A DNA stretch of 64,000 nt. Origin: Candidatus Gottesmanbacteria bacterium (GTDB lineage: Bacteria > Patescibacteriota > Microgenomatia > UBA10105 > UBA927). Position numbers and translations under genes: made by a program. Location: the NCBI GenBank assembly GCA_963790805.1, contig CAWBPL010000002.1, positions 640,696-704,695 on the forward strand, in the 5' to 3' direction. Below the pieces are notes generated by a model. It saw only the letters and a list, made by a program, of their open reading frames with translations. It had not been told where the DNA came from and searched no databases. Positions 4,273 to 54,231 of the stretch are shown one piece after another. Each line of letters starts with the position of its first letter. The stretch's first letter is position 1.

Positions 4273-6060
4273 ATGCAACGCCGGTGGATCTGGGGATTGA
4301 TTGTCGTATTGTTTGTTCTGTTTTCTCTTGTTCCCACTTTCTATGAAATATCACGAAGAAATGATATTCACCCTGACCGTTATTTTGAATTAGTTCATAA
4401 TTTTTATACTGATTATAATTTTTATCTTTCGCGCATACGGCAGGGAAGGGAAGGGGCGTGGACGGTCCATGAAAAATACACCTCCGAACCCCATCAGGGA
4501 TCCTATATGCAGATTTTTTATCTCCTTCTTGGGAAGATTTCCGCATTTTCCCGAGTTCCGTGGCCCAACAGCGGAGATACGTATCACATGGCGCGCGTAG
4601 TTTTGGCAGCAACTCTGTTATTTGTTTTTGCGTATGCTTCAAAAAGCGTGTTTAAAAATTTTATCTGGCAGGTGTTCGGATTTCTTCTCATAGTGACGGC
4701 AAGCAGCTGGCCGATCCTTGTGTACCATATGGACGAGTGGCGCTTCGGCGGCTACATGCCGTGGTGGACCATCATGGATTCGCTCCAGCGCATTACCTTT
4801 ATTCCCCATATGCTTGCCGGTCAGGCGCTTATTGTGTTTCTTCTTTTGGCAATGGCATCAACCGTTACGATGAAGCGGGCCGGCAACTGGTTATTTTTAG
4901 GATTTCTCGCCTTTGTCTTGGGGGTCATATTTCCGCCTGGACTCACCTTTGTCGCTGTAGCGTACGGCGTATTTGTAGTTATTGATCTTTTGTATCGCTT
5001 GCCGATCAAGACGAAGAAAGACTGGACGGAGTGGGCGATCGTGCGTCTTGCAGGACCAATCGTTGTCGGCGTTATCAGCGCCCCATCGCTTCTGTATTTG
5101 GCTTTGGCACTTCGTATTTATCCATGGAAACGGCTTGTTGATTTTGCTGAATTGCACCCGCAACCGTTTAAATTAGGTGAATATGTATTAGCGGTCGGTC
5201 CTATTCTGCCTCTTGGTGTCATCGGTGCAATTATGGCGCTTGTAAATAAAGAAAAGAAACTTTTGCTGTTTGTTTCATGGGTGATCGCGTGGTTTGCCCT
5301 TATTATCGCATTTCAATATATTCCTCAGGAAAGCCCGCTCCGGTTTACCGAAATGCTTCCGCAGGTGCCGCTTGCAATACTTGCAGTTTACTTTTTTTAT
5401 CATGTTAATTTTTTGGGAATCATCGTAATGCATACGGCGCGGGGCGATAAAAATATATCTGATTCGTTACCCGCCGGCGTAAAAAGTTTTCTGTCCCATT
5501 CCATTGGTCACGCAAAGCAATCCTTACGGATTTGGTCGGGCGTAGGGAACGCGCTTCAATTTTTCTCACTTGGAGTGCCGGCGCTTCTGGTCGTACTCGG
5601 GCTTTGTCAAATGTATTCATCATGGCGATGGCAGGCAGAATTTGTTGACCATAAAATCGTCGCCACGGCGCCGTTAGTACCGACAGAAAGTTATGTGATG
5701 TATCCCTTAAAGGATTTTGTAACCGCTATGATTTTTATACAGGATCATACCAGCCGCGATACCGTCATACTTTCCGAAACGACGGCCGGTAATTATATGC
5801 CGGTATATTCAGGAAATACGGTCTATGTGGGTCACGCCAACACCGTCGACACAGAACAGAAGGAAATTATCGTTGCCGATTTTTTCAGCGGAAGAATGGG
5901 ACCCACAAAAGCGAAAGAATTTTTAACGCAAAATAATCTTCATTATATATTCTTCGGGCCGCAGGAAATGGACGACGGGGGAATAAGCGACCTTACGACG
6001 GCGTATCCCTTTTTAACCGAGATCTATAAAAATACGTATGTCCATATTTATCACTGGTAA
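4273..6060 (+). CDS. Polytopic membrane protein, GT-C-like candidate (family A, member 3)
   Basis: 595-aa multi-TM ORF. It carries the family A motifs YTDYNFYLSRIRQGREG and YSGNTVYVGHANTVDTEQKEIIVADFFSG. Confidence 0.6.
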   Translation: MQRRWIWGLIVVLFVLFSLVPTFYEISRRNDIHPDRYFELVHNFYTDYNFYLSRIRQGREGAWTVHEKYTSEPHQGSYMQIFYLLLGKISAFSRVPWPNSGDTYHMARVVLAATLLFVFAYASKSVFKNFIWQVFGFLLIVTASSWPILVYHMDEWRFGGYMPWWTIMDSLQRITFIPHMLAGQALIVFLLLAMASTVTMKRAGNWLFLGFLAFVLGVIFPPGLTFVAVAYGVFVVIDLLYRLPIKTKKDWTEWAIVRLAGPIVVGVISAPSLLYLALALRIYPWKRLVDFAELHPQPFKLGEYVLAVGPILPLGVIGAIMALVNKEKKLLLFVSWVIAWFALIIAFQYIPQESPLRFTEMLPQVPLAILAVYFFYHVNFLGIIVMHTARGDKNISDSLPAGVKSFLSHSIGHAKQSLRIWSGVGNALQFFSLGVPALLVVLGLCQMYSSWRWQAEFVDHKIVATAPLVPTESYVMYPLKDFVTAMIFIQDHTSRDTVILSETTAGNYMPVYSGNTVYVGHANTVDTEQKEIIVADFFSGRMGPTKAKEFLTQNNLHYIFFGPQEMDDGGISDLTTAYPFLTEIYKNTYVHIYHW

Positions 6061-6065: not shown

Positions 6066-6638
6066 ATGAGTTTACTTCGACCGTATATCAATAAACAGGA
6101 AGCGCTTCTTTTGCCGTATCTTGACGGTACAAAACAACTTCTTGATTTCGGATGCGGAGACTTATCGCTCGCCAAAGGATTGAAAAAAGCATTGCCGAAG
6201 CTGAAGATTACGGGTGTCGATGTCGTGGATGCGGGTGTGCGGTCGAAAGAAATAGAATTCAAACTGTATAATGGTCATACGCTTCCGTTTCCCCAAAAAA
6301 CTTTTGATACCACAATTATTTATCACGTTTTTCATCATTGCGATGATCCGAGAGCTGCACTAGCAGAAGTAATGCGCGTAACAAAAAAACAACTGCTCAT
6401 CGTGGAACCGGTCTATCGCTCCTCGCTTGATCTTTTTTTTATGAAAATTCTTGACCGAGTCGGTAACGGGTGGCGCAACGTGACGATTCCCATGCCTTTT
6501 ACTTTTCAAAAAGAATCGACATGGACTGACTGGGCGCGCGAGTTTAAATGGAAAGTTACTGCGACGAGGCATGCAGGTGTGCTTCCCTGTTGGCTGCCGT
6601 TTGGAGAAACAAAACTATTTGTTATTCGCTTTTCCTAA
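6066..6638 (+). CDS. Class I SAM-dependent methyltransferase
   Basis: 190 aa. It has the SAM motif I LLDFGCGDLSLA, then ITGVDVVD and YHVFHHCDDP. It starts 5 nt after the upstream gene. Confidence 0.7.
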   Translation: MSLLRPYINKQEALLLPYLDGTKQLLDFGCGDLSLAKGLKKALPKLKITGVDVVDAGVRSKEIEFKLYNGHTLPFPQKTFDTTIIYHVFHHCDDPRAALAEVMRVTKKQLLIVEPVYRSSLDLFFMKILDRVGNGWRNVTIPMPFTFQKESTWTDWAREFKWKVTATRHAGVLPCWLPFGETKLFVIRFS

Positions 6639-8133
6639 CCATAAGTTCTTTATCATCTCCGACGCGCGCATAATGGTCGCTTATGTACAGTTCAACATCA
6701 TCAGGAAGTAAGGCCCGCGTGTAGTCATCAAGTACCAGATGTTGAAGTTTTTTCTCCTCGAGCATTTGGGTAATAGACGGCAACCGATTCATTATTACTG
6801 GCGGCACATTGCCGATGAAGTACCCAAAAGGGACAGGATAGGAAGGCGGGCGGAACAGATAATTCGGAAACACGCTTTCAGTCGGTGGAATTTGTGCCCA
6901 AACCGTTTCATATCGGGTAATCATGTCGCCGCTTGATATGGTCGAGCGCGTGATGTTATTGGTTACGCCTTCTTTCGCTAAAGCGATATAGATGAAGAAA
7001 AGAATCAGCATTGCAGTTATTTGAAACACTTTTCTCGTTTCGAGCATTGTCAGAAAATCATTAAGAACAACTCCTGCAAACAAAGCAAACATCCAGTTAA
7101 TGAGGAGATAATGCTGTAAAAATACTGATGGCACGTTGAAGACGACGATGAGTTGAGCGATAAGCGTTACACAAAGCATGACCCTGATAGTTTCCGTTCC
7201 GTTCAAACTGTGTTTTGAGATGATTTCCCGAATAACATGGTAGAAACCGGCAAACCCGACAAGCGGCAAGATCCACACATAGATCCACGAAAGCGGCATT
7301 CCCATAGTGCCGTATAAAAGAATATTATTGGGCGCATTAAAGTTGCCAAATGGTATGGGATATCGAAAAACGTTATATGCGGCTCCCGATTCAACGATCA
7401 ACTGCTGGATCATTTCATGCAAAGCTCCGATTGATACGCCGTAGAGCGCAAACAGGATAAAGGGGGCAAGAAATGCAAGCCCCATAGGAAGAAGTGAATG
7501 CATTGTTTTTTTGAAATAACAGTAAATGAAATAGATAAGTATTACGACGCCAACGGCAGGCGCTATTTTCATGAACGTGAGAATCGATAATCCGAAAAGA
7601 AATGCGGAAGCAGCCAGTTCCCTCACGCGTTTACTTTTCATGCCGAAGGACAAAAACATAAGGGCAAGCGTGTACATTGTCATCATGAGATTGTCCGGTC
7701 TGATCTGCATGCCTGAATACACGAGAAACGGGTCGAGAATGAAAAGCGGAAGAAAAAACCACGCCGTGCGCTTCGTAAATACCTGTCGGACAAAAAAATA
7801 TCCGGCGACAAGTCGTACGACAAAAAGAAGCACCATGATATATCGGGTAAATGCAATTGTTGTAAACGAGAACCCAAAAAGTAAAAATGCCGGCATGAGG
7901 ACAAGTTCAAATACCGGCGTGTAGAACGAGTTGTAGATGTCTTTGTATGGTTTATATCCGTGAACATAAAGATACACAAGATTTGCATGATGGAGTTCAT
8001 CGATGTCAAACTGATACCCGTAGCCGCTTTTGAGTACGGACCAAAGGAGCCAGATGCCGATGACGAACGAGGCGGTAACAAGAAGCGTAAGAAGAAATTT
8101 TCCCAACGACAATGCAGGAAATTTACTTTTCAT
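6622..8133 (-). CDS. GT-C glycosyltransferase, PMT/GT39-like (family C, paralog of 24552-26117)
   Basis: The ORF extends to 8193, with in-frame ATGs at 8193, 8142 and 8133, so the start is uncertain. It has more than 10 TM segments. The first-loop motif QFDIDELHHANLVYLYVHGYKPYKD matches RFFDVDEFTHMHWAADMARGQKPYVD in the paralog. It resembles the FDEVHF loop of protein O-mannosyltransferases. Confidence 0.6.
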   Translation of the reverse strand: MKSKFPALSLGKFLLTLLVTASFVIGIWLLWSVLKSGYGYQFDIDELHHANLVYLYVHGYKPYKDIYNSFYTPVFELVLMPAFLLFGFSFTTIAFTRYIMVLLFVVRLVAGYFFVRQVFTKRTAWFFLPLFILDPFLVYSGMQIRPDNLMMTMYTLALMFLSFGMKSKRVRELAASAFLFGLSILTFMKIAPAVGVVILIYFIYCYFKKTMHSLLPMGLAFLAPFILFALYGVSIGALHEMIQQLIVESGAAYNVFRYPIPFGNFNAPNNILLYGTMGMPLSWIYVWILPLVGFAGFYHVIREIISKHSLNGTETIRVMLCVTLIAQLIVVFNVPSVFLQHYLLINWMFALFAGVVLNDFLTMLETRKVFQITAMLILFFIYIALAKEGVTNNITRSTISSGDMITRYETVWAQIPPTESVFPNYLFRPPSYPVPFGYFIGNVPPVIMNRLPSITQMLEEKKLQHLVLDDYTRALLPDDVELYISDHYARVGDDKELMVRKSE

Positions 8134-8183
8134 TGTATTCATAATAGCATAGGGCAGAAGTGAAATATGAGTATCACAAAAAT

Positions 8184-8870
8184 ATGAGTACATTCGTTTC
8201 TATCGTTTCGCCTCTCTATAATGATGCTTCAACGATGCCGTCAGCGCTTCCGCTCCTCGAGCGGCTGGCTGGTTCTCATTTTTCCCGCTGGGAAATTGTG
8301 CTCATTGATGACGGAAGTCAAGATAACGGTCCCGCGTGGATCCGTCGTTACGTAAAAGAGAGAAAACATATTCATGTGTATTTTCATCAGAAAAATCAGG
8401 GAATTGCAAAGACCTATCGGGAGCTCTATGCGCGGACAAAAGGGGACGTCATTGTGCTTTTCAGTCTTGACGGCGGTTGGGATCCCTCCGATGCTGTCCG
8501 TCTTGCTCAAAACGCTATCGATGATCAATTGGATATTGTGGTCGGCGTCCGGAAGAAAAAATCCTATACGCTCTGGCGAAGCGTCGTATCGATTTGCTAC
8601 AACTGTGCGACCAGATTTCTTTTTGGCGTAGATACCAAAGATGCGGGTAGCATTAAAGCAATTCGAAAAGAAGTTATTCAAAAAATACCGATTGTTTCCC
8701 GAGGGGTTTTTGATGAGGCAGAGCGCATTATTAAGGCAAAACGTTTAGGATTCCGCATTGGATATTTGCCTGTTTCCCATTCAGCTTCCCGTGATAAAAA
8801 ACGTCGAGGAATCCGACCACAGCATGTTATCGAAGCTCTTGATGATTTGGTATCAGTACTGAAAAGGTGA
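8184..8870 (+). CDS. GT2 family glycosyltransferase (polyprenyl-phosphate sugar synthase-like)
   Basis: VSIVSPLYNDASTM, VLIDDGSQDNG and FSLDGGWD follow the GT-A pattern. The track ORF starts at GTG 8160, which would overlap the divergent gene. ATG 8184 is preferred. Confidence 0.75.
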   Translation: MSTFVSIVSPLYNDASTMPSALPLLERLAGSHFSRWEIVLIDDGSQDNGPAWIRRYVKERKHIHVYFHQKNQGIAKTYRELYARTKGDVIVLFSLDGGWDPSDAVRLAQNAIDDQLDIVVGVRKKKSYTLWRSVVSICYNCATRFLFGVDTKDAGSIKAIRKEVIQKIPIVSRGVFDEAERIIKAKRLGFRIGYLPVSHSASRDKKRRGIRPQHVIEALDDLVSVLKR

Positions 8871-9882: not shown

Positions 9883-9967
9883 ATTTATCTATAACTTCAA
9901 AACTTACCGTGATGAACAGATACGTATTGAGTTGCCGGGATAATTGTTTTCCTGTATAACTTGTTTT

Positions 9968-11242
9968 ATGAAGAATCGGGTAAAAACCGTTTTATTGCTA
10001 CTTGCGATTTTTATTCTCGGAATTATATTTCGACTCTGGATCGCTTCGTTGGCGCCGCAGCCGTTTATAAATGATCAAAAAGATTACGAATGGTTTGCGA
10101 CGAAGATTCTTCGGGATCCCCACATGCTTGCGTCACATACGTTTAGAACTTATCCGACGCCACTTTTAAACGCGATTATCTATCGTTTTGCCGGATTCGG
10201 AAATCATACGGCAATTTTTTTCGTTCAAGCCGTTCTGGATAGTTTTGTCTCTTTGATGATCTTTTACATTCTCCGACGCGGATTGAAATTTCGAAATATA
10301 GCGTGGTTAGGCGCTGTTTTGTATGCGGTCAATCCGTTTACCGCCGGATATGTCAATGTGGTATTGTCGGAGATTTTAAGTATCTGGACCGTTGCGGCAA
10401 CAGTATTAAGCGGAATTTTCTTTATTCGGCGTCCGACGATATTTCGCGGTGCATTGTTTGGTCTGATACTTGGTGTGGGGGCGGAAACGCGAAATGCAGC
10501 ATTTTTTTGGGCGATTATCCCGCTCGGATTATTGTTGTGGGTTGTACCGTTTCAAAAGGCAAAATGGGCGTTTGGTGCGGTCATGTTGGGTCTTGTTTTG
10601 GCCGTTCTGTATCCTCTTACGGCAAACTGGCGAGATTATAAAGTTATCAATATTTCTACTGTCGATGATTTTTACGCGAAAGAGCTTTTTAACGGTGCGA
10701 TTATTAAACGGTTGCCGCCGCTTGCGCCGCCATTGCCGCAGGCAACATACCAAATGTATGCTGAATATTATTCTGAATACTGGCCGGAGCGTCAGAATAG
10801 TGCGTACAGAAAAGCCATTGCTATAAAATATTATATGAAAGCATGGAATGTCATTGCCGGTGACCCGTTGAGTTATATAAAAACGTGCTTCGGCAAAATG
10901 TGGTATGTTTGGCAAAAAGAAGCCATTTATGTGTATGTAGAACCGGGGTATGAATCGCACAGGATCTATACGTATATGGCAAATCTTTTCGTGCTTGCTT
11001 TTGCACTTACCGGTTTATTGTTTTTTCCTGTTAGGAAAGGTCAAAAAGGCGTTATAGCCCGATGGGTGCGATGGACGATTATTGGAACGATCCTGTACGG
11101 CACGCTTGCGTTTAGCATAACGCATGCGGAATATCGATTAACGATCCCTTTCTATCCGCTGCTTTTTATAAGCGCGTCGGCTGGTTTTGGATGGGTAGCA
11201 CACCTTGTTCAAAAGATTTTTCGTAAGGAGTCATTACAATGA
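9968..11242 (+). CDS. GT-C glycosyltransferase, GT39/ArnT-like (family B-related)
   Basis: The track ORF starts at TTG 9944. ATG 9968 gives MKNRVKTVLLLL. It is multi-TM. The loop FRTYPTPLLNAIIYRFAGFGNH resembles the RTPVYP/RPPLYP loop of 20503, 27269 and 29519. Confidence 0.55.
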   Translation: MKNRVKTVLLLLAIFILGIIFRLWIASLAPQPFINDQKDYEWFATKILRDPHMLASHTFRTYPTPLLNAIIYRFAGFGNHTAIFFVQAVLDSFVSLMIFYILRRGLKFRNIAWLGAVLYAVNPFTAGYVNVVLSEILSIWTVAATVLSGIFFIRRPTIFRGALFGLILGVGAETRNAAFFWAIIPLGLLLWVVPFQKAKWAFGAVMLGLVLAVLYPLTANWRDYKVINISTVDDFYAKELFNGAIIKRLPPLAPPLPQATYQMYAEYYSEYWPERQNSAYRKAIAIKYYMKAWNVIAGDPLSYIKTCFGKMWYVWQKEAIYVYVEPGYESHRIYTYMANLFVLAFALTGLLFFPVRKGQKGVIARWVRWTIIGTILYGTLAFSITHAEYRLTIPFYPLLFISASAGFGWVAHLVQKIFRKESLQ

Positions 11243-12117
11243 GCAAACATCAAGGTTTTCGATGTTACTTGTGCGGAAGCGCCATGCGCTTTGGATTTTA
11301 CAAAAGAGGATATGAAATCTGGCATTGTGATGCGTGCGGGTTGGGAATGACAGATCTGCAACGGTCGTATCGGCCGTTTATAACCAATTTTTATAACAAG
11401 AGATACTTTACTGGGGGAGATGAGTGTGGAGCGTATGAAGACTACGAAAAAGATAAACCGTTAGAGGTACGGAATCTTTCTGCGATGCTTGATGCCTGCG
11501 GTGAACCAGTAAAAGGCGGTCGGCTTTTGGATGTCGGATGTGCGATGGGGTATTGTATTGCTGAAGCAATGGGTCGCGGCTGGGATTCATACGGAATTGA
11601 CGTATCTTCGTACGCAATTTCCCGCGCAGATGCCGCTATTAAACCGCGAATTCGTATAGCGACGATCGGGGAAATGAAGTTTCCTAAGGAGTATTTTGAT
11701 AGGATTACCATGTTAGACGTTCTTGAACACCTGAAAGATCCCCGTAGAGATTTGATGCGATTGCGGTCTTTTTTAACGGATACCGGAAGATTAGTCATAG
11801 CAACCGGAGACTCGTCAAGCGTATTTGCCCGACTTATGGGCAGCCACTGGATGTTTTATAATCCTCCGCAACATTTGTTTTTCTTTAACAGACCGACGCT
11901 CACAAGATTGCTTCAAGAATCAGGATATGAACCTATACGGTGGTTTAGTGTGGGCAAATGGTTAGGACTGGGATATATTTTGCATTTAGCGGTAACAACT
12001 GGCGATTTTCGGTGGATATCGTTTCTTGACAAAGCAATTAAAAAAACACGATTCAATAGGGTGCCTATCTATGTACCGGTTCTTGATAATATTGTAGTTG
12101 AAGCAAAAAAGAAATAA
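11239..12117 (+). CDS. SAM-dependent methyltransferase with N-terminal Zn-ribbon (paralog of 38940-39803)
   Basis: It has CYLCGS...CDACG (CxxC-x17-CxxC) and the SAM motif LLDVGCAMGY. The C-terminal FYNPPQHLFFF is shared with the paralog's FAHPEHVVLF. There is a 4-nt ATGA overlap with the upstream gene. Confidence 0.7.
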   Translation: MSKHQGFRCYLCGSAMRFGFYKRGYEIWHCDACGLGMTDLQRSYRPFITNFYNKRYFTGGDECGAYEDYEKDKPLEVRNLSAMLDACGEPVKGGRLLDVGCAMGYCIAEAMGRGWDSYGIDVSSYAISRADAAIKPRIRIATIGEMKFPKEYFDRITMLDVLEHLKDPRRDLMRLRSFLTDTGRLVIATGDSSSVFARLMGSHWMFYNPPQHLFFFNRPTLTRLLQESGYEPIRWFSVGKWLGLGYILHLAVTTGDFRWISFLDKAIKKTRFNRVPIYVPVLDNIVVEAKKK

Positions 12118-12132
12118 TCGAAGATTTTACGT

Positions 12133-14271
12133 ATGAAAACAACATTGCGTATATTGCCGGTATTGAGTTATATCGTTATCGTTGTCGGATTATTTTATGC
12201 TTTCTTCACGCCACCCGCGGGTCACATCCTCTTTGGAGATGATTATTTGCAACTCACATATTATCAACGTCTGTTTGTGCGTGAATCGTTGGCGCGCGGA
12301 CAATTACCTCTTTGGGACCCGTATTTGTATGGAGGGGCGCCGGCGCTGGAGCATCCGCAACTGACGTTTTGGTATCCCGTTAATATACTGTATCTTGTTT
12401 TTCCTCCCCAGACGGCATTTCCGGTACATCTGGCAATTCACCTTTGCGTTGCGATGATTGCCATGTACTGGCTTATGCGCCGGTGGGTTAGCCGGTTGCC
12501 TGCGTGGTTAAGCGGCATCGCCTACGGCATGTCGACTTTTTTCTGGTACAGAATTCCTGCGGGACATACAGAAGTCATTGCATCGGCAGCATGGGCACCG
12601 TTGGTGTTTGGACTTTTCTATCGGGTATTTGCAATAGGAAAGCGGCCGAAAGCGGCTGACGTGCGCCTCATCCTCTTTGCCGGTATGGCGTTTGCCCTGC
12701 AGCTTTTTTCGGGATATAAGACTATGGCAATATTTACCGCTGAAGCTGTTGCGATAGCCTGTGTAATCGTGTGTATACGTCTCCGAACGCTGCGACCCAT
12801 TGTTTATTCTGCTGTTGCGGGGCTCATAGGGTTATTACTCGATTCAGTTGAATTGTTGGGAAATCAGCAGTATGTGCATTTGAGTCTTTTTAGCATGAAT
12901 TTGCCATACGCATGGGCCACCGTAGGTACTCCGACAATTAATCATCTACTGGAATTTGTAGACCCGGTAAGTTATTTGTTACGAAACCCCAATGACCTCT
13001 ATCTTATTCACGAACGGGCGGCATATGTCGGCAGCATCTCATTAATTCTCGCGCTTGGCGCCATCATATACGGCTTTTGGCGCCGTAAATTAAAAAATCC
13101 TGAGTATTTGATTTTCACGGTGCTTTGCATCTTGGGCATATGGGTGGGATTTGCCAATCAAATGCCCGTTGATATTTTTGCGTTTTTCAAAAATCACCTG
13201 CCGTGGTATCAGGGTGTGCGGATTCCGACACGACATTTTTTTTGGTTTATTCTTGGGACAGCAGCGCTTGCGGGGTTGGGGGCACAGGTATTGTCCAAAA
13301 AGGTTATTCAGATAATTTTAATTGCCGTACTTCTTTGGCAACTGGTTCCTTTGGCACACTCACAATTTTATCTCACCAATGCACCCGGTACTTCCGATGA
13401 TCAGGAATTGATTTCGTATTTACAACAGAATAGCGGACTTACCAGATTTGTAGGAGTTAATTACGATTTTTCAATTCTTAGAAATGTGCTTCCTCTGAAT
13501 GCACCGAATCAATATCATTTGTATTCGTTATTCGGATATAATTCGCCGCCACTTCGCAACTATATCGAATATGTTCTTGCGGTAAATGGCCTACCGCAGT
13601 CAACAGCATATCAGTATGTTGACTCAACGCCGGTTTATCAGAATTTCAGTTCACGGTATACGGATGCTCTTAATGTCAAATATATTTTAGAAACTATCGC
13701 GACTGATTCGTTAGCCGGTGACATAAGCGGAAAATTCATAATGGTAAAACAGAGTCCGAATGACGGATGGAGACTGTATGAAAACCGTGACGTGATGCCG
13801 CGTTTTTACATGGTTGCGCAGGCCCAAATACTGCCGGATCTGGATGCTGTTTACACGGCAATCAGTAAAGAAACAACAGATCCCCGAACAACAGTTTTGT
13901 TTGCTCAAAACGACATTCATACACCTCTCATAAGCGGTACGTGTCAACAAGGGGATTTGAAAAGCGTTGATGTCTTAGAATATTCTGATACGACGATTCG
14001 CTTGCGGACAAATAATCCTTGTGCAGCGTATTTGATGAGCTCGGAAGTGTATTATCCCGGATGGACTGCGAGTATTGACGGAATATCGACACCGGTTCAA
14101 GAGGGGAACCTCGCATTTCGTGCCGTCTTTGTACCGGCCGGCGAACATACGATTATATTTCACTATGTGCCTAAAATTATCTACGTAGGAATGTTTGTAA
14201 CTTTATTGACGGGACTTGTTTGCGGGGTATGTTTGTGGAAAAGCTATAGAATTTCCGATAAACGATCGTAA
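12133..14271 (+). CDS. YfhO-family GT-C membrane glycosyltransferase
   Basis: 712 aa with many TM segments. The C-terminal extracytoplasmic domain has the YfhO-typical YYPGWTASIDG...FRAVFVPAGEHTIIFHY and a final TM helix. Confidence 0.7.
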   Translation: MKTTLRILPVLSYIVIVVGLFYAFFTPPAGHILFGDDYLQLTYYQRLFVRESLARGQLPLWDPYLYGGAPALEHPQLTFWYPVNILYLVFPPQTAFPVHLAIHLCVAMIAMYWLMRRWVSRLPAWLSGIAYGMSTFFWYRIPAGHTEVIASAAWAPLVFGLFYRVFAIGKRPKAADVRLILFAGMAFALQLFSGYKTMAIFTAEAVAIACVIVCIRLRTLRPIVYSAVAGLIGLLLDSVELLGNQQYVHLSLFSMNLPYAWATVGTPTINHLLEFVDPVSYLLRNPNDLYLIHERAAYVGSISLILALGAIIYGFWRRKLKNPEYLIFTVLCILGIWVGFANQMPVDIFAFFKNHLPWYQGVRIPTRHFFWFILGTAALAGLGAQVLSKKVIQIILIAVLLWQLVPLAHSQFYLTNAPGTSDDQELISYLQQNSGLTRFVGVNYDFSILRNVLPLNAPNQYHLYSLFGYNSPPLRNYIEYVLAVNGLPQSTAYQYVDSTPVYQNFSSRYTDALNVKYILETIATDSLAGDISGKFIMVKQSPNDGWRLYENRDVMPRFYMVAQAQILPDLDAVYTAISKETTDPRTTVLFAQNDIHTPLISGTCQQGDLKSVDVLEYSDTTIRLRTNNPCAAYLMSSEVYYPGWTASIDGISTPVQEGNLAFRAVFVPAGEHTIIFHYVPKIIYVGMFVTLLTGLVCGVCLWKSYRISDKRS

Positions 14272-14276
14272 TAATT

Positions 14277-15351: not shown

Positions 15352-16053
15352 TCAAGTAATGGTGATGTCCTTCTTGTTGAACTCACGGATCATGTCGATA
15401 ATGGTAGGGTAAATGGTCTTAAAAAATTTTCCGCCGGTTGCGCCTTTTGCATGTCGATATTTGTGTGCGATTGCTACTTCAGCAATGTGAAAGCCCTTAC
15501 GTTTTGTTTTAATCGCGAGCTCCGCATCAACGAAAGCGGTATTCGATTGCAGGAAAATACTTTTAATAAGCGATCGTTTCATGAGCCGAATGGTGTTGAC
15601 ATCATGGAGTTTCAGCGAAAAAAATACATTCAAAAGTCCATTGTAAATTTTTGACTGCAGGAGTCTGAGAGTCGGATCGTGACGGTTATTCCGCCAGCCC
15701 AAAATCATATCCGCATGCGCGGCGGCGGGGAGAAGTTTTAAGAGTTCCGTTGCTTCAAATTGATCGTCTCCGGGAAACGAAAAAAGCCAGTCGTATTTTC
15801 CCGACGTATACAATTCTTTAATTGTTTTGCCATACCCTTCGTTTTGTTTATGGGTAATAATCCGAAGAGGAGGAAATCTTTTTCGTAAATTTTTTAGGAT
15901 CACTCCGGTGTTATCGATGCTGGCATCATTTACAACAAGTATCTCCAGTTTGCTGGCAACCTTCCTGCCAACTGCGTATGCATGAGTGACAACAAATTCT
16001 ATAGTGTTTTCGACGTTATAGGCGGGGATAAGAATGGAAAGAGTTGGCTTCAT
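15352..16053 (-). CDS. GT2 family glycosyltransferase
   Basis: LSILIPAYNVENTIE, VVNDASIDNT and FPGDDQF follow the GT-A DxD pattern. Confidence 0.75.
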   Translation of the reverse strand: MKPTLSILIPAYNVENTIEFVVTHAYAVGRKVASKLEILVVNDASIDNTGVILKNLRKRFPPLRIITHKQNEGYGKTIKELYTSGKYDWLFSFPGDDQFEATELLKLLPAAAHADMILGWRNNRHDPTLRLLQSKIYNGLLNVFFSLKLHDVNTIRLMKRSLIKSIFLQSNTAFVDAELAIKTKRKGFHIAEVAIAHKYRHAKGATGGKFFKTIYPTIIDMIREFNKKDITIT

Positions 16054-16065: not shown

Positions 16066-16125
16066 ATTATACGGGTTACCAATGGTTTTTCAATAGCATG
16101 ACTTTTTGATCCGACAGGGTATAAT
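16066..16125. promoter_or_regulatory. Divergent promoter pair with two consensus TATAAT boxes and very short leaders
   Basis: On the plus strand, TATAAT at 16120-16125 lies 8 nt before ATG 16134. On the minus strand, TATAAT (plus-strand attata, 16066-16071) lies 12 nt before the ATG at 16053. It is preceded by TTGAAA with a 16-nt spacer. Confidence 0.45.
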
Positions 16126-17027: not shown

Positions 17028-17089
17028 TTATAGATATTCCTTGATGATTGTTTTACAATGGAGGCCGAAAAACCGTACCACACAAAATT

Positions 17090-18037
17090 ATGACTCGAAA
17101 AAAACTTATTACCATCGGCATTCCCTGTTTCAATGAAGAGCTTAATGTCATACCCGCATATGAAGCGCTTTTAGACGTTACCAAAAACCTCAAACGGTAT
17201 AATTTTGAATTTATCTTTGTCGATAACGGGAGCGAAGATGGGACCAGAGGCATGATAAAACATGCCGTTGCACGGGACCATCGTGTCCGCGGAATATTTT
17301 TATCACGCAATTTTGGTCCAGAATCATCCTCTCAGGCGGCTTTGGATTTTGCAAAAGGAGACGCATTTATTTTTTACGAGTGCGACATGCAGGACCCCGT
17401 CAACGTGATTCCCAAATTTATCAAAAAATGGGAAGAGGGGTATGACGTTGTTGTCGGAATCCGCACGAAGATTGATGATAATTTCCTTATGACGATTCTC
17501 CGAAAAACGTTTTACCGCATATTCAAATCCGTCTCGAACATTGATGTACCAGTTGATGCAGGGAGTTTCGGGTTATTGAGTAAGCGGGTTATTTCCGCTA
17601 TCCGTGCTCTTCCGGAGCGGTACCGGTTTCATCGGGGTCTTCGTGCATGGGTAGGGTTTAAGCGTGCGTTTATTACGTATGAACGCAGACGTCGCATGCG
17701 GGGACGCAGTTCCTATAATTTGCTGGAATATTTTCACCATGCGGAACGGAGTTTTTTCGGATTTTCATACGTACCGCTTGATATGATCGTGTATCTCGGA
17801 ATTGTTGCAGTGGTTGTGTCATTTTTATTCTTTTTTCTGTACCTTCTTTACTACATATTTTATGATCATTCCCACAGCGCGAACCTCCCGATTATCATTA
17901 TCGGTATAGTTCTTTTATTTAGCGGCGTACAGTTGTTGGCGTTGAGTTTTGTCGGTAAATACGTGCAGGTTATCGTTGAAGAAACAAAAGGACGACCCAT
18001 GTATCTTGTTGAGGAGACTGTCTCACGGGGAGGGTAA
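17090..18037 (+). CDS. GT2 glycosyltransferase with C-terminal TM helices (GtrB/ArnC/DPM1-like polyprenyl-phosphate glycosyltransferase)
   Basis: ITIGIPCFNEELNV, FVDNGSEDGT and ECDMQD are present. Two C-terminal TM helices (IVYLGIVAVVVSFLFFFLYLL and IIIIGIVLLFSGVQLLAL) are typical of the lipid-carrier-charging GT2 subgroup. The track ORF starts at 17048, and ATG 17090 is preferred. Confidence 0.75.
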   Translation: MTRKKLITIGIPCFNEELNVIPAYEALLDVTKNLKRYNFEFIFVDNGSEDGTRGMIKHAVARDHRVRGIFLSRNFGPESSSQAALDFAKGDAFIFYECDMQDPVNVIPKFIKKWEEGYDVVVGIRTKIDDNFLMTILRKTFYRIFKSVSNIDVPVDAGSFGLLSKRVISAIRALPERYRFHRGLRAWVGFKRAFITYERRRRMRGRSSYNLLEYFHHAERSFFGFSYVPLDMIVYLGIVAVVVSFLFFFLYLLYYIFYDHSHSANLPIIIIGIVLLFSGVQLLALSFVGKYVQVIVEETKGRPMYLVEETVSRGG

Positions 18038-18087
18038 TGATTCGAAGACCTCTACAATCGTGATGAGACATTTGGTAGAATTACCCT

Positions 18088-18783
18088 ATGCATTTTGAAG
18101 ACCCAAACGGACTTGCCACACTTGAGAGTATGAGTCAGGCTGTCTGGTATAACCGGTGGACATTTAAAAATTTTTCCCAATTTGTTACCGGTGACATCTT
18201 TGAGGTCGGTTGCGGGATAGGGAATTTTACGTCCATACTTACCGAGTATGGGCGAGTGTGGGCATGCGACATTAAACCATCGTATGTAAAACGGACGAAA
18301 CAACGAGTGGAAAAAAGGGGGGTAATTGGATTGGGGAATATAGAAACGGGCAAACTGTTCTTCGGATCAAAACAATTTAATACGATTGTATGCCTCAATG
18401 TTCTCGAACATATCCGAGATGATCAAGTTGCCATAAAACACATGTATCAACTTCTCAAGCCCGGAGGACATTTGATTGTTCTTGTACCGATTTATTCATA
18501 TCTTTACGGCAGCGTCGATATGGCAATAGGACATTTCCGCCGATACGTTCCATCAGATCTTATGCAAGTCGTTCAAAAAGCCGGATTTCACATCGTGCAC
18601 AAACGAATATTGAATTTTATTGGGGCATTTGCCTGGTTTGTTACGGGAAGTATTTTAAAGCGAAAAACGCTTTCGCGGAAGCAGCTTGCACTTTTTGACC
18701 GGTTTGCGCCGTTTATTTTGCCGCTCGAAGATATTGTCAGGCCACCCATAGGCACCTCTATTCTTCTTATCTTGCAAAAATGA
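18088..18783 (+). CDS. Class I SAM-dependent methyltransferase
   Basis: IFEVGCGIGNFT (motif I), CLNVLEHIRDD and LKPGGHLIVLVP. Confidence 0.75.
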   Translation: MHFEDPNGLATLESMSQAVWYNRWTFKNFSQFVTGDIFEVGCGIGNFTSILTEYGRVWACDIKPSYVKRTKQRVEKRGVIGLGNIETGKLFFGSKQFNTIVCLNVLEHIRDDQVAIKHMYQLLKPGGHLIVLVPIYSYLYGSVDMAIGHFRRYVPSDLMQVVQKAGFHIVHKRILNFIGAFAWFVTGSILKRKTLSRKQLALFDRFAPFILPLEDIVRPPIGTSILLILQK

Positions 18784-18862
18784 GGAGGGTATATTTATCG
18801 AGAAATATTTTTGTTACACTAGAAAATTAGTTGAATAGAATATCGACTAAGGAGTGTACTGC

Positions 18863-20518
18863 ATGATTCGAAAAAGATTCTCATTTTTGTATTCCGATAA
18901 ATTTTGGTGTTTTCTCGCCGCGTTTATTTTAATAGGTCTTTCATATTTGCAGGTTGTGATCAATTTCCAACACGCGCCAAGCGGTGTTCATTATTTGGGT
19001 TTGGCTGACGAATACCCGATTGATTCAACATGGGATTTCGGTTTAATCCGCGAAGGATATAACGGCCATCTTTTTCCATTTCTCAATTTTTCCTCAACAC
19101 TGCCCGACAGCACATCGCTTCTCAAAATTGAATATACAACAGTCGGTTTATTTGCACGGGTTACGCATTTAGATCCCATCGCCGCTTTTTATGTGGTGCG
19201 TTTTGTCTTGTCTCTCGTGTTTCTCTGGATAATATACCGGATAATTTCGTTTATTTTCCGAAGACCTCTTGAGCGGGTTGTTGCATATGTGTTTGTGTTG
19301 TTCGGAGCAAGTGTCACGTTGTCACCCGCCACTGATTTCGTGAAAATAAGCGCCATGGATGCGTTGGTAACGCAACGGTTGACTCTCGCCGCAATTCACT
19401 ATCAGTTGGGCAGTTTATTATCGATAGTATCCCTCTATTTTTTGTCGAGATTTCTCGATAGACCATCGCGTGTTCGCTTATTTCTCGCCGCTGCAGGAAC
19501 CGGAGCTCTTGCTTCTCTTGTGAATGCTCCGGCTATGGCGCTTGTTTTAAGTTCATTACCGTTATATTTTTTAATCGTAGTTATCCGGTTATGGAATCCA
19601 CCAAAAGGAAAATCCCATATAGTATCTCAAGCACAACTATTATTTTCCTATGCAGTTATTACCAGTCTTCCGGTGTTTTATGTGCGCTATGTTACGACGA
19701 CCGTCTGGGGTCCGTATGACTTTAATTTCAGCGAGCAATTAAATCCCTTTCATCTGACGTTATGGCAATATATTCTTGCGATGGGGAGTACGTATCTTTT
19801 ATCTCTTTTCTCCATCCCGCGTATCGTAAAAAACGGGAAGACGCTTTTGCTTCTCTTGGTTGGGTGGATAGTGATGCATCCGATCGGTGAATATGTTATT
19901 CCCGGCATGCTGCACATAAATAACATTCGATATTTTTTTACTCCTTATTTTGTCGGTTTTGGAATATTAGCAACCGTCGGGGTTTGGGAAATTGTTTCTT
20001 TCTCTCAAAAATACATTCGCAAAATCCCTGCCAATGTCATCGTCGGTTGTTTTGTTTTGGTGGTTTTAGGGTCAAGTTACGAAACTTTTTCGGCAAGTTT
20101 CACGCGCGCGGAACTCTGTTTTTGCGATGTTCCGACATCTACATTCGGGTATCCCCAGCAGGATCTTGTCAGTGTTCTTACATGGTTGGGAACGCATTCA
20201 AGCGAAAACGAGATAGTTCTCAGCGGGTTTTACGCAGGCAACTTAATACCGGTATTTTCAGGGAACAGAGTATATACCAGCTGGTGGCAGAGACTCATGG
20301 AACCCGCAGGGCTTTATGACGTGCGTATGAGCATGGAATCTTTTTATCTGGGCAAAATGACAGATGATGAGGCTGCAATGTTTGTTCACACAAACAATAT
20401 CCGCTGGGTGCTTTATTCACCGACGGAACATATAAATCCGGCCTTTCAAACGCTTCCGTACTCATTCCTTACCCTCGCACGTCAAACAGGAGATACTCAA
20501 CTCTATAAAGTTCGATAG
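18863..20518 (+). CDS. Polytopic membrane protein, GT-C-like candidate (family A, member 4)
   Basis: AAGGAG lies at 18849-18854, 8 nt before ATG 18863. The track ORF begins at GTG 18854. It is multi-TM. The motifs WDFGLIREGYNGH and FSGNRVYTSWW align with family A. Confidence 0.6.
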   Translation: MIRKRFSFLYSDKFWCFLAAFILIGLSYLQVVINFQHAPSGVHYLGLADEYPIDSTWDFGLIREGYNGHLFPFLNFSSTLPDSTSLLKIEYTTVGLFARVTHLDPIAAFYVVRFVLSLVFLWIIYRIISFIFRRPLERVVAYVFVLFGASVTLSPATDFVKISAMDALVTQRLTLAAIHYQLGSLLSIVSLYFLSRFLDRPSRVRLFLAAAGTGALASLVNAPAMALVLSSLPLYFLIVVIRLWNPPKGKSHIVSQAQLLFSYAVITSLPVFYVRYVTTTVWGPYDFNFSEQLNPFHLTLWQYILAMGSTYLLSLFSIPRIVKNGKTLLLLLVGWIVMHPIGEYVIPGMLHINNIRYFFTPYFVGFGILATVGVWEIVSFSQKYIRKIPANVIVGCFVLVVLGSSYETFSASFTRAELCFCDVPTSTFGYPQQDLVSVLTWLGTHSSENEIVLSGFYAGNLIPVFSGNRVYTSWWQRLMEPAGLYDVRMSMESFYLGKMTDDEAAMFVHTNNIRWVLYSPTEHINPAFQTLPYSFLTLARQTGDTQLYKVR

Positions 20519-26760: not shown

Positions 26761-26764
26761 GGAT

Positions 26765-32075: not shown

Positions 32076-32141
32076 ATTATTTTATATTGACAAGATTGTA
32101 ATTTCTGTTACAGTTTTTGTTGTGTCAGTAAATATACATAT

Positions 32142-35125: not shown

Positions 35126-35158
35126 TATCTAAAGAGCTTTAGAATAACAGATACCGCT

Positions 35159-39990: not shown

Positions 39991-41001
39991 ATGCTTGGGA
40001 TGAAGCCCTATCTTTCCATCATCATCCCTGCCTACAACGCGAGCGTTTCCCTGAGTCGTTTGCTTGAGTCATTGAAAAAATCATCGTTTCGAAGTTTTGA
40101 AGTGATCGTCGGCGATGATGCATCAAACGAACAATACCTCGTGGGGAAGGGGATCAGGATTGTCAGATTGACGCGCAATAAAGGTCCGGCTGCGGCCCGT
40201 AACGCCGCAGCGAAACGCGCAAACGGTCAGGTATTGGTGTTTCTTGATAGCGACGTGACGGTCTATCCAGATACGCTTGCCAAAATTGCCGCGAAATTTA
40301 AAGAAGATCACGATTTGACCGCAATAACAGGCGTCTGGGATAAACATCAAAAAACCAAAGCTTTTTTCCCTCAATTTAAAGCAATCCGCGACTGGAGCTA
40401 CTGGACAAACGAACGGGAGCGGGATGGTTATTATTATCTTTTCAGCACCAGAATTGCCGCTATACGCCGCGAAGTATTTAAGCGGCTTGGAGGATTCAAT
40501 GAAGCATTCCGTCAGATGGAGGATGTAGAGCTAACCTACCGCATTGCGAAGCGGTACGCCATCATTTTTGCGCCTGATGTACGGGTACATCATGAATTTG
40601 AAGGATTCTGGGCTGTCGCTCGAAAATATTTCTGGCGAAGTTACTATTGGACAAAGCTGTATAAAGAGCGTAAAAAATTTGATCCGGTTGCAACCACCGT
40701 CTGGGAAAGCGTCGCTGCGGTATCGGGAGTTGGAGCCGTCGCGTGTGTCGTTGTCGGCATCATCGTCTTTTTCTTTCTTCCTTTAGCGTGGGTAAAACTC
40801 GTTACTCTGGTGAGCGCTGTCATATTGCTTCTTGTCCACATATTTCTGCTTCAAAAATTCCTGCGGTTTGTGTATAAAGAAAAGGGATTGGTATTTACGC
40901 TGAAGGCGCTGGGAACAGGACTTGTTTTGTACTGTATTATTTTGGGAGGATCTCTCTATTATTCCGTTCGATCACCAACACCCCGTGGTATGATACAGTA
41001 A
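39991..41001 (+). CDS. GT2 glycosyltransferase with C-terminal TM helices
   Basis: LSIIIPAYNASVSL, VGDDASNE, FLDSDV and QMEDVEL are present. There are 3 C-terminal TM helices. Confidence 0.75.
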   Translation: MLGMKPYLSIIIPAYNASVSLSRLLESLKKSSFRSFEVIVGDDASNEQYLVGKGIRIVRLTRNKGPAAARNAAAKRANGQVLVFLDSDVTVYPDTLAKIAAKFKEDHDLTAITGVWDKHQKTKAFFPQFKAIRDWSYWTNERERDGYYYLFSTRIAAIRREVFKRLGGFNEAFRQMEDVELTYRIAKRYAIIFAPDVRVHHEFEGFWAVARKYFWRSYYWTKLYKERKKFDPVATTVWESVAAVSGVGAVACVVVGIIVFFFLPLAWVKLVTLVSAVILLLVHIFLLQKFLRFVYKEKGLVFTLKALGTGLVLYCIILGGSLYYSVRSPTPRGMIQ

Positions 41002-44701: not shown

Positions 44702-44730
44702 TTGCATTTTACGTATTCCCTTGTCATACT
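44702..44730 (+). promoter_or_regulatory. Candidate promoter of the pilin genes
   Basis: TTGCAT (44702-44707), a 17-nt spacer, then CATACT (44725-44730). It lies 16 nt before ATG 44747. Confidence 0.35.
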
Positions 44731-44746
44731 GGACGAAAGATCGTCT

Positions 44747-45442
44747 ATGACACATCGTTCTTGCCCTATTGTGAGTAAGAAGGGATTTACGCTCGCCGAA
44801 CTTCTTATTGTTGTAGCCATTCTTGCCATTCTCCTTATCATTCTATTAGTGAATCTTCGCACACAGATTGCGCGAGGTGATGACATCAAACGAAAAGCAG
44901 ATCTTGCCAAAATCCAAAAATCATTTGAGGAATATTATAACGATAAGCAGTGCTATCCGCCGACTGCCATAATTGCAAACTGCGGAAGCTCTGACTTAGC
45001 TCCGTACCTGAATCAGGTCCCGTGTGATCCGACGACGAAAAAACCGTATTTGTATGTCACAGGAACGCCTACTGCGTGTGATGGCTATCATCTTTGCGCA
45101 AAACTTGAAGATCTCAGTGATCCTGAGATCGTACGAATTGGTTGCAGTCCTCAGGGGTGCGGTTGGGGAGCGGGGTATAATTATTGTGTTGCGGTGGGTT
45201 CCAGTGTCACGGCTCCCGACTATGTTCCATCAAACGGTACAGGTCCGGAAGAAACAGGTGCGGGTGGTTCTCCAACTCCTACGCCAATTCCAGGTCAGTG
45301 GGCGTGTACGCCTGCAGGCGATTGTGATTCATATGCAAACCCGCAAGGAGCAAATTGTCCATTTACCTATCAGCAGTTCGGATGTATATATAATGGAGTA
45401 TATCAGTGTACCACCGTGGCTAACAGATGTAAAAATTACTAG
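44747..45442 (+). CDS. Type IV pilin-like protein (class III signal peptide), Cys-rich C-terminus
   Basis: MTHRSCPIVSKKG|FTLAELLIVVAILAILL carries the prepilin G|FTLxE motif followed by a hydrophobic helix. The C-terminal part is P/T/G-rich with 8 or more Cys. The track ORF begins at TTG 44702. Confidence 0.8.
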   Translation: MTHRSCPIVSKKGFTLAELLIVVAILAILLIILLVNLRTQIARGDDIKRKADLAKIQKSFEEYYNDKQCYPPTAIIANCGSSDLAPYLNQVPCDPTTKKPYLYVTGTPTACDGYHLCAKLEDLSDPEIVRIGCSPQGCGWGAGYNYCVAVGSSVTAPDYVPSNGTGPEETGAGGSPTPTPIPGQWACTPAGDCDSYANPQGANCPFTYQQFGCIYNGVYQCTTVANRCKNY

Positions 45443-45454
45443 GCACAGCGATGT

Positions 45455-46493: not shown

Positions 46494-46500
46494 ATTTCCT

Positions 46501-54231
<7,731 letters not shown>

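Follow-up and report, generated by a model that had tools for sequence, protein, structure and literature searches.

Does a gene trio that recurs within a surface-glycan cluster constitute a repeated functional module? This question was raised by a 64,000-nt stretch of contig CAWBPL010000002.1 (this whole stretch is called the window below), in which an initial annotation had noticed that three gene types lie side by side three times: a family 2 glycosyltransferase (GT2), an S-adenosylmethionine (SAM)-dependent methyltransferase and a polytopic glycosyltransferase of the C fold (GT-C). The trio at 17090-20518 is termed the flagged trio here, and the other two lie at 38940-42591 and 6066-8870. 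The named homologues of window proteins came from Gottesmanbacteria, Daviesbacteria and the 'Patescibacteria group', and the source was therefore read as a Microgenomates-type bacterium of the Candidate Phyla Radiation (CPR). Bacteria of the CPR (Patescibacteria) are mostly uncultured, the cultivated ones live attached to other microbes, and contact with other microbes is believed to run through surface glycans and pili. We consider it reasonably probable that the first ~44 kb of the window are a hypervariable surface glycosylation island of shuffled cassettes, in which the flagged trio is a local rearrangement with an epimerase plus a GtrB-type GT2 as its only conserved unit, and the trio at 38940-42591 is the one module.

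The number of trios carries little weight

Open reading frame (ORF) listing together with Pfam and NCBIfam scans showed that positions 1-44,500 are a dense surface-glycan island of 37 genes, which include 14 for polytopic GT-C-like proteins with ~7-13 predicted transmembrane (TM) helices, 4 for GT2s and 4 for class I SAM methyltransferases. The remaining island genes mostly encode nucleotide-sugar enzymes, namely epimerases and dehydratases of the short-chain dehydrogenase/reductase (SDR) type, RmlD-like, NTP-transferase and GFO/IDH/MocA proteins, DegT and class I/II aminotransferases, an acetolactate synthase (ALS)-like thiamine pyrophosphate (TPP) enzyme, a split transketolase and a haloacid dehalogenase (HAD) enzyme. 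Three pilin-like genes, a gene for a 2576-aa collagen-repeat protein, and those for leucyl-tRNA synthetase (LeuRS), ComEA and ComEC lie 3' of the island. By all-against-all BLAST of the window proteins, the polytopic proteins were grouped into family A (242, 1885, 4273 and 18854, four paralogues within 20 kb and without a Pfam match), family B (9944, 20503, 27269 and 29519) and family C (6622 and 24552). The PMT_2-like proteins 21876 and 41008 each had no significant BLAST match to other window proteins, and the YfhO-like protein 12133 and the membrane protein 42602, which bears tetratricopeptide repeats (TPR), were each listed as a group of their own.

When the gene order within the 37-gene island was permuted, the average number of triads was 1.0; three or more arose with a probability of 0.09 and two or more with a probability of 0.27, and permutation over all 47 genes gave P=0.03. 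With three trios against 1.0 expected at P~0.09, the count was therefore given no weight as evidence; by itself it is weak evidence, and an excess above chance is unconvincing. Copies of a single module were likewise rejected as an explanation, as the same BLAST comparison found the methyltransferases to be 23-28% and the GT2s ~25% identical, with different GT-C families in the trios. The threefold adjacency of the gene types thus stood, but the idea of one module present three times did not, the three trios being three different gene combinations. 'Recurring triads' in gene-dense islands need synteny tests, not counts.

The flagged trio is real but appears lineage-specific

The gene types assigned to the flagged locus were borne out (genes are named by position; Table 1). 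Hydropathy peaks at residues 246-264 and 282-300 of GT2 17090 correspond to the annotated C-terminal TM helices, and the protein aligned along its full length with the Synechocystis GtrB protein sll0501 (5ekp; E 5.5e-58, residues 21-323 against 28-328) and with ArnC (E 2e-26, residues 19-325). Its match to the NCBIfam model PgfS extended over positions 3-305 of 308 and reached 226 bits, under the equivalog cut-off of 500 bits, and it is therefore related to PgfS at family level but is no orthologue of it. Its ORF runs from 17048, and the likely start is M15 at 17090, where the orthologue alignment begins. By these profile and pairwise comparisons, GT2 17090 is a bona fide member of the GtrB-type family. 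Protein 18088 was confirmed as a methyltransferase by matches to Methyltransf_11/12/23/25 and to NodS (38 bits against a Pfam cut-off of 24), and otherwise resembles generic class I enzymes. The family A ORF opens at 18854, and AAGGAG lies upstream of its ATG at 18863. All four genes of 16134-20518 are co-directional with gaps of 20-80 bp, promoter-like sites were found on both strands at 16066-16125 (upstream of epimerase 16134, as a divergent pair), and no terminator-like sites were found between the genes of 16134-20518. The epimerase, GtrB, methyltransferase 18088 and family A genes are probably co-transcribed in this genome.

Family A orthologues were found in few genomes, and the gene order of the window was set against three neighbourhoods that carry them (L011, L012 and L013). 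The methyltransferase was missing from all three. L011, which with L015 represents the closest relative, starts with a GFO gene (69% to 14277) and a GT2 (64%, orthologue of 15352), continues with another GFO gene, a GT2 of 242 aa, family A (56%) and then family B, and ends with the epimerase (61%), GtrB (75%) and a PMT_2 gene (66%, orthologue of 21876). In L014/L015 the epimerase-GtrB pair also adjoins PMT_2 and no methyltransferase is present, and in all of L011, L014 and L015 the epimerase orthologue (61%) lies beside the GtrB orthologue. L012 has family A straight after the divergent GT2 15352 orthologue, followed by orthologues of 23571, 24552 and 27269, and lacks the epimerase, GtrB, the methyltransferase, 20503 and 21876, while the arrangement of L013 is different again and the trio is absent there. 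Orthologues of GT2 15352 (61-64% identity) adjoin family A in L011 and L012, and the slot between these two genes is filled by differing cassettes in the window, L011 and L012.

The same picture was obtained from the other two members of the trio. Methyltransferase 18088 has 548 homologues, the best 120 of which are 48-58% identical and belong to Microgenomates. Six homologue neighbourhoods fell into two contexts, the first with Wzx, GT2, in some cases another methyltransferase, the homologue itself, GT2 and a family 1 glycosyltransferase (GT1), and the second with Wzy_C/GT2, then a 366-375-aa protein and the homologue, then GT1, GT1 and GT2; in 0 of the 6 did the homologue lie between a GtrB-type GT2 and family A. 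On the GtrB side, one genome per species was scanned, which gave 41 loci with full-length relatives. A DegT aminotransferase was the immediate neighbour in 12 of the 41, TPP-enzyme and epimerase genes were frequent nearby and mostly upstream, a polytopic protein was adjacent in 11 and no more than three genes away in 22, and a methyltransferase was adjacent in 6 and no more than three genes away in 10. The strict trio was found at a single locus (1/41, L030). The methyltransferases near GtrB relatives were mostly of 350-410 aa and related to 38940/11239, and no 18088 orthologue was found among them (≤37 bits).

The adjacency in relatives that the initial annotation had proposed to check was thus not found for the flagged trio in L011-L013, in L014/L015, in the 41 GtrB loci or in the six 18088 neighbourhoods. 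Judged from gene order, the conserved unit at this locus appears to be the epimerase and GtrB alone, methyltransferase 18088 appears to be a lineage-specific insertion between GtrB and family A, and the flagged trio appears to be a real but lineage-specific juxtaposition produced by local rearrangement, not a conserved module. The repeats flanking methyltransferase 18088 or the epimerase-GtrB-methyltransferase cassette were short and at chance level only, and insertion scars were not found.

Family A is a predicted GT-C family without a sequence model

Family A protein 18863-20518 had no Pfam or NCBIfam match and ~9-11 predicted TM helices. In an alignment of nine sequences (the query, five database homologues and the three window paralogues), D57 in the 'EYPxD' loop after TM1 was invariant, as were R175 and H182, and D57 may have a catalytic role. 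Comparison by hhalign with the window PMT_2-like paralogues gave 92.5% probability over the TM core. The AF2 model (pLDDT 76, pTM 0.79) was compared with the PDB using Foldseek, and the top 24 matches were all GT-C proteins (STT3, AftA, DPY19, PglB and ArnT; E 9e-8 to 2e-4, TM-score ~0.5), the following matches having E>0.1. The invariant Asp, the hhalign result and the Foldseek matches together led us to assign family A as a GT-C-fold protein, a model-based prediction that agrees with the GT-C role first given to 18863.

At E≤1e-3, an exhaustive profile search of a 50%-clustered library returned 5513 cluster representatives, of which 1568 reached E≤1e-30, and 10 of 10 sampled relatives had no Pfam match. 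Family A therewith appears to be a large GT-C family that lacks a Pfam or NCBIfam model and stands outside the PMT_2, YfhO and ArnT sequence families, which is one of the more solid gains of this analysis.

The trio at 38940-42591 appears to behave as a module

For the second trio, domain and TM scans confirmed 38940 as a methyltransferase and 39991 as a GT2 with C-terminal TM helices, and the assignment of 41008 as a GT-C held in part: the protein is polytopic, but its PMT_2 match is weak and below the cut-off. The annotation had reasoned from CsbB/GtrB-type systems, in which a GT2 charges undecaprenyl phosphate (Und-P) with a sugar that a GT-C enzyme transfers outside the membrane. This logic fits the flagged locus, with its co-directional GtrB-type GT2 and predicted GT-C fold, but does not extend to GT2 39991, which is not GtrB-type. 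Matches of 39991 to PgfS (26 bits) and ArnC (25 bits) covered the N-terminal part only, the best models were EpsD/MftF-like, and phmmer gave no GtrB or ArnC match at E≤1e-5. When its predicted structure was compared, the best full-length match was the membrane GT2 PcManGT (6yv7, TM-score 0.50) vs 0.40-0.44 for GtrB/ArnC, and on this basis a PcManGT-like enzyme could not be told from a GtrB-like one.

Metagenomes scanned with GT2 39991, together with three contig look-ups and a tblastn table, yielded 21 orthologous loci with GT2s 54-82% identical. A 38940-type methyltransferase lay at most one gene from the GT2 in 14 of the 15 loci where that side was visible, and the 41008 orthologue was adjacent in 12 of the 16 loci that were informative for it. 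Next to the trio, in convergent orientation, comes TPR membrane protein 42602, and longer contigs then carry the three pilin genes and the giant protein. The order changed to GT2, methyltransferase, GT-C in L085/L086, the GT-C was inverted in L100, and a family A gene (L084) or a 214-aa ORF (L101) was inserted. Upstream of the trio the window has DegT, L085, L087 and L089 have a family C GT-C, and L090, L099 and L101 have a soluble GT2. The persistence of the trio through rearrangement and changing upstream context argues for functional linkage beyond inherited synteny. The proposed adjacency check therefore came out differently from that of the flagged trio, and from its conservation 38940-42591 appears to be the only one of the three trios that behaves as a module. 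GT2 39991 is its most conserved member (64-82% identity over >120 clusters), which suggests a core role.

The neighbours of this trio yielded several side observations. TPR protein 42602 was tried as a PMT_2-like protein and rejected, as hhalign against the window PMT_2-like group gave 1.6% probability; its PDB sequence matches were confined to the TPR part, and in L100 a 900-aa PMT_2+TPR protein adjoins its orthologue. In L099, the closest relative, the TPR membrane protein is separated from the pilin genes by a 238-aa methyltransferase (13848-14564, minus strand) that is distantly related to 18088 (55 bits in L079), at a place where the window has no gene; this is another case of methyltransferase cassettes moving within the island. 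The giant protein (46501-54231, minus strand) has a collagen-like region with 30 GPT, 18 GST and 15 GAT triplets, one TM segment and an overall composition of 14% Thr and 11% Ser, and residues 8-96 at the N-terminus of its ORF match Phage_int_SAM_1. Relatives carry giant proteins of 2966 aa (L099) and 3907 aa (L101) at the same position.

Because the trio is kept beside the pilins and the 30-GPT protein, these could, speculatively, be candidate O-glycosylation acceptors, their tie to the trio being conserved co-location only. An ambitious and rather improbable extension of this idea takes 38940-44482 as a CPR system that would make a methylated lipid-linked donor, its methyltransferase acting on a polyprenyl-phosphate-bound sugar, and would use the donor to O-glycosylate the type IV pilins next to it, the giant GPT protein or both. 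In parallel, family A would be a large and so far undescribed family of GT-Cs whose donor and acceptor specificities are its own. If true, three-component systems would gain in this methyltransferase a new class of auxiliary enzyme beside epimerases and the deformylase. The methyltransferase-GT2(TM)-GT-C-TPR cluster by the pilins is another of the more solid gains, being well delimited and conserved and thus open to experiment.

Methyltransferase genes occur in changing contexts

The third trio (6066/6622/8184) has the annotated gene types, but they lie on mixed strands (+/-/+) and the GT2 lacks a TM helix. Methyltransferase 6066 starts after a 5-bp gap behind family A 4273 on the same strand, and the same pairing of a family A gene (544 aa) followed by a methyltransferase (218 aa) was found in L013 at 12086-14363; 6066 more likely pairs with the upstream family A gene than with 6622/8184. 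The 6622 orthologue of L012 abuts a YfhO-like gene and not a GT2, and L012, the only related contig, ends inside this orthologue. An orthologue of 6066 (64% identity) lies directly upstream of a 39991-type GT2 in L085; from this and the context of 11239 (Table 1) it follows that methyltransferase genes move among GT2 and GT-C contexts.

As listed, the divergent ORFs 6622-8193 (minus strand) and 8160-8870 (plus strand) overlap at their 5' ends by 10-34 bp, and the true start of one or the other probably lies further in.

Candidate substrates of the methyltransferases

SAM is cytoplasmic, and the methyl group on a GT-C-delivered sugar must therefore be added before flipping. Substrates of the methyltransferases could accordingly be sought among nucleoside diphosphate (NDP)-sugars, Und-P-sugars and cytoplasmic lipid-linked oligosaccharides, one of which each enzyme would methylate. 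A link to quinones, which the initial annotation had named as grounds for doubt, did not emerge: all four methyltransferases scored far under the UbiE/UbiG/MenG cut-offs (18088, 42 vs 378 bits for UbiE and 38 vs 103 for UbiG; 38940, 62 vs 103 for UbiG; 6066, 33 vs 158 for MenG/UbiE; 11239, 40 vs 103 for UbiG), and their homologues always lay in glycan clusters.

It is possible, though we think it doubtful, that the methyltransferases have nucleotide sugars as substrates, adding C-, N- or O-methyl groups to NDP-sugars, and belong to neighbouring precursor pathways with no special tie to the GT2 and GT-C genes. Consistent with this, 38940 begins 16 bp past a DegT aminotransferase and closes the run 31104-38923 of sugar-enzyme genes; 38940 and 11239 both combine an N-terminal CxxC...CxxC (Cys4) ribbon with a SAM domain and weakly match KijD1/TcaB9 (E 1e-7, residues 28-231 vs 52-251); and the methyltransferases by GtrB relatives, mostly of the 38940/11239 type, lie among DegT, TPP-enzyme and epimerase genes. 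However, at 287 aa and 292 aa the two proteins lack the C-terminal domain of the ~416-aa TcaB9/KijD1/TylC3 family of NDP-sugar 3-C-methyltransferases, and membership in that family was rejected for both; 18088 has no KijD1/TcaB9-type similarity; and in six loci (L080, L085, L087, L099, L100 and L101) the methyltransferase stays with the GT2 while the upstream DegT and sugar genes are replaced. The run itself is unbroken on the plus strand and consists of a 4,6-dehydratase-like SDR, the ALS-like TPP enzyme, a class I/II aminotransferase, the split transketolase (35159/36025), HAD and DegT, which suggests a branched or amino sugar of an unusual kind as its product. Homologues of the TPP enzyme, the transketolase halves and DegT recur beside GtrB relatives in other CPR genomes.

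For 18088 in particular, we tentatively entertain that it methylates a lipid-linked oligosaccharide repeat unit built in the cytoplasm by soluble GT2 and GT1 enzymes (Wzx/Wzy-type), and came to lie beside GtrB and family A by rearrangement only. All six homologue neighbourhoods place it beside soluble 240-260-aa GT2s, GT1s, Wzx or Wzy_C, the soluble GT2 15352 lies just upstream and divergently in the window, and with AglP a methyltransferase is already known to take part in a pathway of lipid-linked oligosaccharides (PMC3871713). Yet Wzx or Wzy was not detected in the window by Pfam, and homologues that are just 48-58% identical may differ in specificity.

A probable glycosylation island of shuffled cassettes

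The reading of a shuffled island would work as follows. The island would be built from nucleotide-sugar enzymes, lipid-carrier-loading GT2s, ~14 GT-Cs of at least four families and four unrelated methyltransferases. At the flagged locus, epimerase 16134 would make a UDP-sugar, the GT2 would, in keeping with its GtrB-type family membership, move the sugar onto undecaprenyl phosphate at the cytoplasmic face, and the family A protein, with its predicted GT-C fold, would decorate an extracytoplasmic acceptor from the flipped lipid-linked sugar. Methyltransferase 18088 would methylate, before flipping, a hydroxyl or amine of its most likely substrate, a lipid- or nucleotide-linked sugar. Taken together, the methyltransferases are most likely optional cytoplasmic accessories of shuffled lipid-linked glycosylation modules; we argue for cassette shuffling because a 6066 orthologue lies beside a 39991-type GT2 in L085 and differing cassettes lie between GT2 15352 and family A.

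Several points weigh against this reading. Flippases of the GtrA, SMR, MATE and Wzx families were not found by Pfam among the 47 window ORFs of at least 100 aa, and the pathway as drawn is incomplete. Family A-bearing loci compared numbered only three, and, given the tight co-directionality seen here, GtrB, 18088 and family A may be functionally coupled in this lineage despite the absence of the trio elsewhere. The relatives of the second trio are fairly close (GT2s 65-82% identical), so part of its conservation may be inherited synteny, and the more distant L093 (GT2 54%) carries no methyltransferase. Moreover, profile, phmmer and structure comparison did not place GT2 39991 among the polyprenyl-phosphate glycosyltransferases.

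The model that prompted the analysis, in which each trio is self-contained and its GT2 makes an Und-P-sugar that the methyltransferase methylates and the GT-C transfers outside, giving three sugars, now seems unlikely to us. It draws on the tight co-directional arrangement at 17090-20518, on the conservation of 38940-42591, on a further methyltransferase-GT2-PMT_2 operon in L002 (9715-12634) and on known cytoplasmic auxiliary enzymes that modify Und-P-sugars (PMC11127046). It is opposed by the absence of the first trio from every examined locus with a family A gene, the mixed strands and TM-less GT2 of the third, the GT2 of the second, which is not GtrB-type, GT2-PMT_2 pairs without a methyltransferase in L006 and L008, and the non-significant triad count. 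Self-containment in particular did not survive the Pfam scan, which detected no flippase. That the methyltransferases target non-glycans (quinones, proteins such as pilins, or RNA) and lie here by coincidence would suit their weak generic matches to UbiE/UbiG, PrmA and others and the non-significant trio count, but with such matches far under curated cut-offs, a glycan cluster in every homologue neighbourhood examined and a conserved 38940/39991 pairing we regard it as highly improbable.

The shuffled-island reading means that ~44 kb of a 1.2-Mb genome are given to lipid-linked surface glycosylation, with ~14 GT-Cs and cassette-wise differences between close relatives. If the methyltransferases modify lipid-linked donors, methylation would join epimerisation and deformylation as a means of donor diversification, which would be useful for glycoengineering.

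Other features of the window

Two tandem small membrane proteins of 161 and 171 aa (26275-27280, plus strand) have 3-4 N-terminal TM helices and a soluble C-terminal part, and neither 26275 nor 26765 had a Pfam match. The pair is kept beside GT-C genes in L011 (14740-15734), L012 (11083-12106) and L014/L015, and these proteins could be candidate accessory or flippase-like components.

The LeuRS gene (55465-57892, plus strand) is broken into at least four frames, 55465-55611 (the HIGH region), 55502-56881, 56992-57174 and 57128-57892. Because the gene is essential and the contig is one single piece of 1.22 Mb, assembly indels are a more likely cause than a pseudogene. Similar indels may have altered further ORF boundaries in the window; the lengths of the trio genes match those of their orthologues. 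ComEC (58755-60740, plus strand) is split into a Competence-domain ORF of 358 aa and a metallo-beta-lactamase ORF of 298 aa, 12 bp apart, which may be natural or another frameshift. Between the giant-protein gene and LeuRS lie 1.2 kb (54231-55465, ~34% GC) with no ORF of at least 60 aa and no Rfam match, and an Rfam scan of the whole window gave zero matches at the gathering threshold.

Table 1. Genes at the three trios and their immediate surroundings (positions in the window).
Feature	Position	Strand	Basis or remark
Family A GT-C paralogue	4273..6060	+	BLAST paralogy; methyltransferase 6066 is probably its true partner gene
Small class I methyltransferase, 190 aa	6066..6638	+	Domain scan
PMT_2-type GT-C	6622..8193	-	PMT_2 31.8 bits; convergent with 6066, divergent from 8160
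Soluble GT2, 236 aa, no TM helix	8184..8870	+	ORF opens at 8160; weak likeness to PpgS, AglJ and the N-terminal part of ArnC
GT-C-like 9944, zinc-ribbon methyltransferase 11239 and YfhO-like 12133, without a GT2	9944..14271	+	Fourth methyltransferase context
Soluble GT2, 233 aa, divergently transcribed	15352..16053	-	Pfam scan; family A neighbour conserved among relatives
SDR epimerase, 297 aa	16134..17027	+	Pfam Epimerase E 1.4e-22; first gene of the co-directional unit
GtrB/CsbB/ArnC-type GT2, two C-terminal TM helices	17090..18037	+	Profile, pairwise and hydropathy evidence
Class I SAM methyltransferase, 231 aa	18088..18783	+	Methyltransf_11/12/23/25, NodS
Family A polytopic protein, predicted GT-C fold, with C-terminal extracytoplasmic domain	18863..20518	+	Predicted fold, profile comparison
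Methyltransferase, N-terminal CxxC...CxxC zinc ribbon and Methyltransf_23, 287 aa	38940..39803	+	Partner of GT2 39991
GT2 with C-terminal TM helical bundle, not GtrB-type	39991..41001	+	64-82% identity in relatives
Polytopic GT-C-like protein	41008..42591	+	PMT_2 23.9 bits, under the 26.1 cut-off; starts 6 bp after the GT2
11-TM membrane protein with C-terminal TPR repeats	42602..44482	-	Conserved convergent neighbour of the trio
Three pilin-like genes (+) and 2576-aa giant protein (-)	44702..54231	mixed	Conserved beside the trio 38940-42591

Comparison with known systems

Three-component glycosylation is exemplified by GtrA/GtrB/GtrC of Shigella and Salmonella phages, by CsbB/YfhO and GtlA/GtlB of Firmicutes and by PgfS/PgfE/PgfM1/PgfM2 of S. 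mutans. Such systems consist of a synthase, a flippase and a GT-C, with auxiliary cytoplasmic epimerases that act on the Und-P-sugar, and ORF15/14/12 of C. youngae form one of them (PMC11127046). The window resembles them in having a GtrB-type GT2 (17090-18037) beside predicted GT-C-fold proteins and, as with PgfE/PgfS, an epimerase directly upstream of the GT2. It differs in that no flippase was found, a methyltransferase lies between synthase and GT-C, the GT-C belongs to a family lacking a model, and the arrangement is not kept in relatives. Our literature searches turned up neither a methyltransferase inside a bacterial GtrB/GT-C three-component system nor a direct report of GT-C expansions in CPR bacteria.

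The Arn pathway employs the DegT aminotransferase ArnB, the GT2 ArnC, the deformylase ArnD acting on the Und-P-sugar, the GT-C ArnT and the flippase ArnE/F, and ArnD establishes that a sugar can be modified while on its lipid carrier. Likeness to it lies in the full-length match of GT2 17090 to ArnC and in the GtrB loci, 12 of 41 of which have DegT as immediate neighbour, with polytopic proteins after. In contrast to Arn, the auxiliary enzyme of the window is a methyltransferase and not a deformylase, and homologues of ArnA, ArnD and ArnE/F are absent. To our knowledge, CPR bacteria lack lipopolysaccharide, and the acceptor therefore cannot be lipid A.

In the Agl pathway of Haloferax volcanii, the GT2 AglD, the flippase AglR, the Dol-P-Man transferase AglS and the SAM methyltransferase AglP act together (PMC3871713). 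As in the window, a lipid-phosphate sugar synthase, an extracytoplasmic lipid-sugar transferase and a SAM methyltransferase belong to one surface-glycosylation pathway, a likeness of components of which sequence relationship to the window genes is no part. Agl, however, is archaeal, and AglP serves the assembly of the dolichol-phosphate-bound oligosaccharide and does not act on the separately delivered mannose.

Mycofactocin biosynthesis pairs MftF, a GT2 with a TM region, with the methyltransferase MftM. Similarly, GT2 39991 is paired with a class I methyltransferase, and its alignment to the MftF model spans the catalytic as well as the C-terminal region, whereas its MftF score is 97.8 bits vs a cut-off of 280, the MftM matches are generic (E 1e-3 to 6e-5), and the window has no mycofactocin genes, the setting being one of GT-C, pilin and surface-protein genes.

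Actinobacterial protein O-mannosylation relies on the GT2 Ppm1 and the GT-C Pmt, and the collagen-like GPT repeats of Bacillus BclA are O-glycosylated with methylated sugars. A GT-C, TfpW, glycosylates the pilin of P. aeruginosa (10.1101/2020.04.19.049825). The pilins and the giant protein of the window are, by contrast, tied to the trio by conserved co-location only; like these systems, the window combines PMT_2-like GT-Cs and small soluble GT2s with pilin genes and a 30-GPT giant protein beside the trio at 38940-42591.

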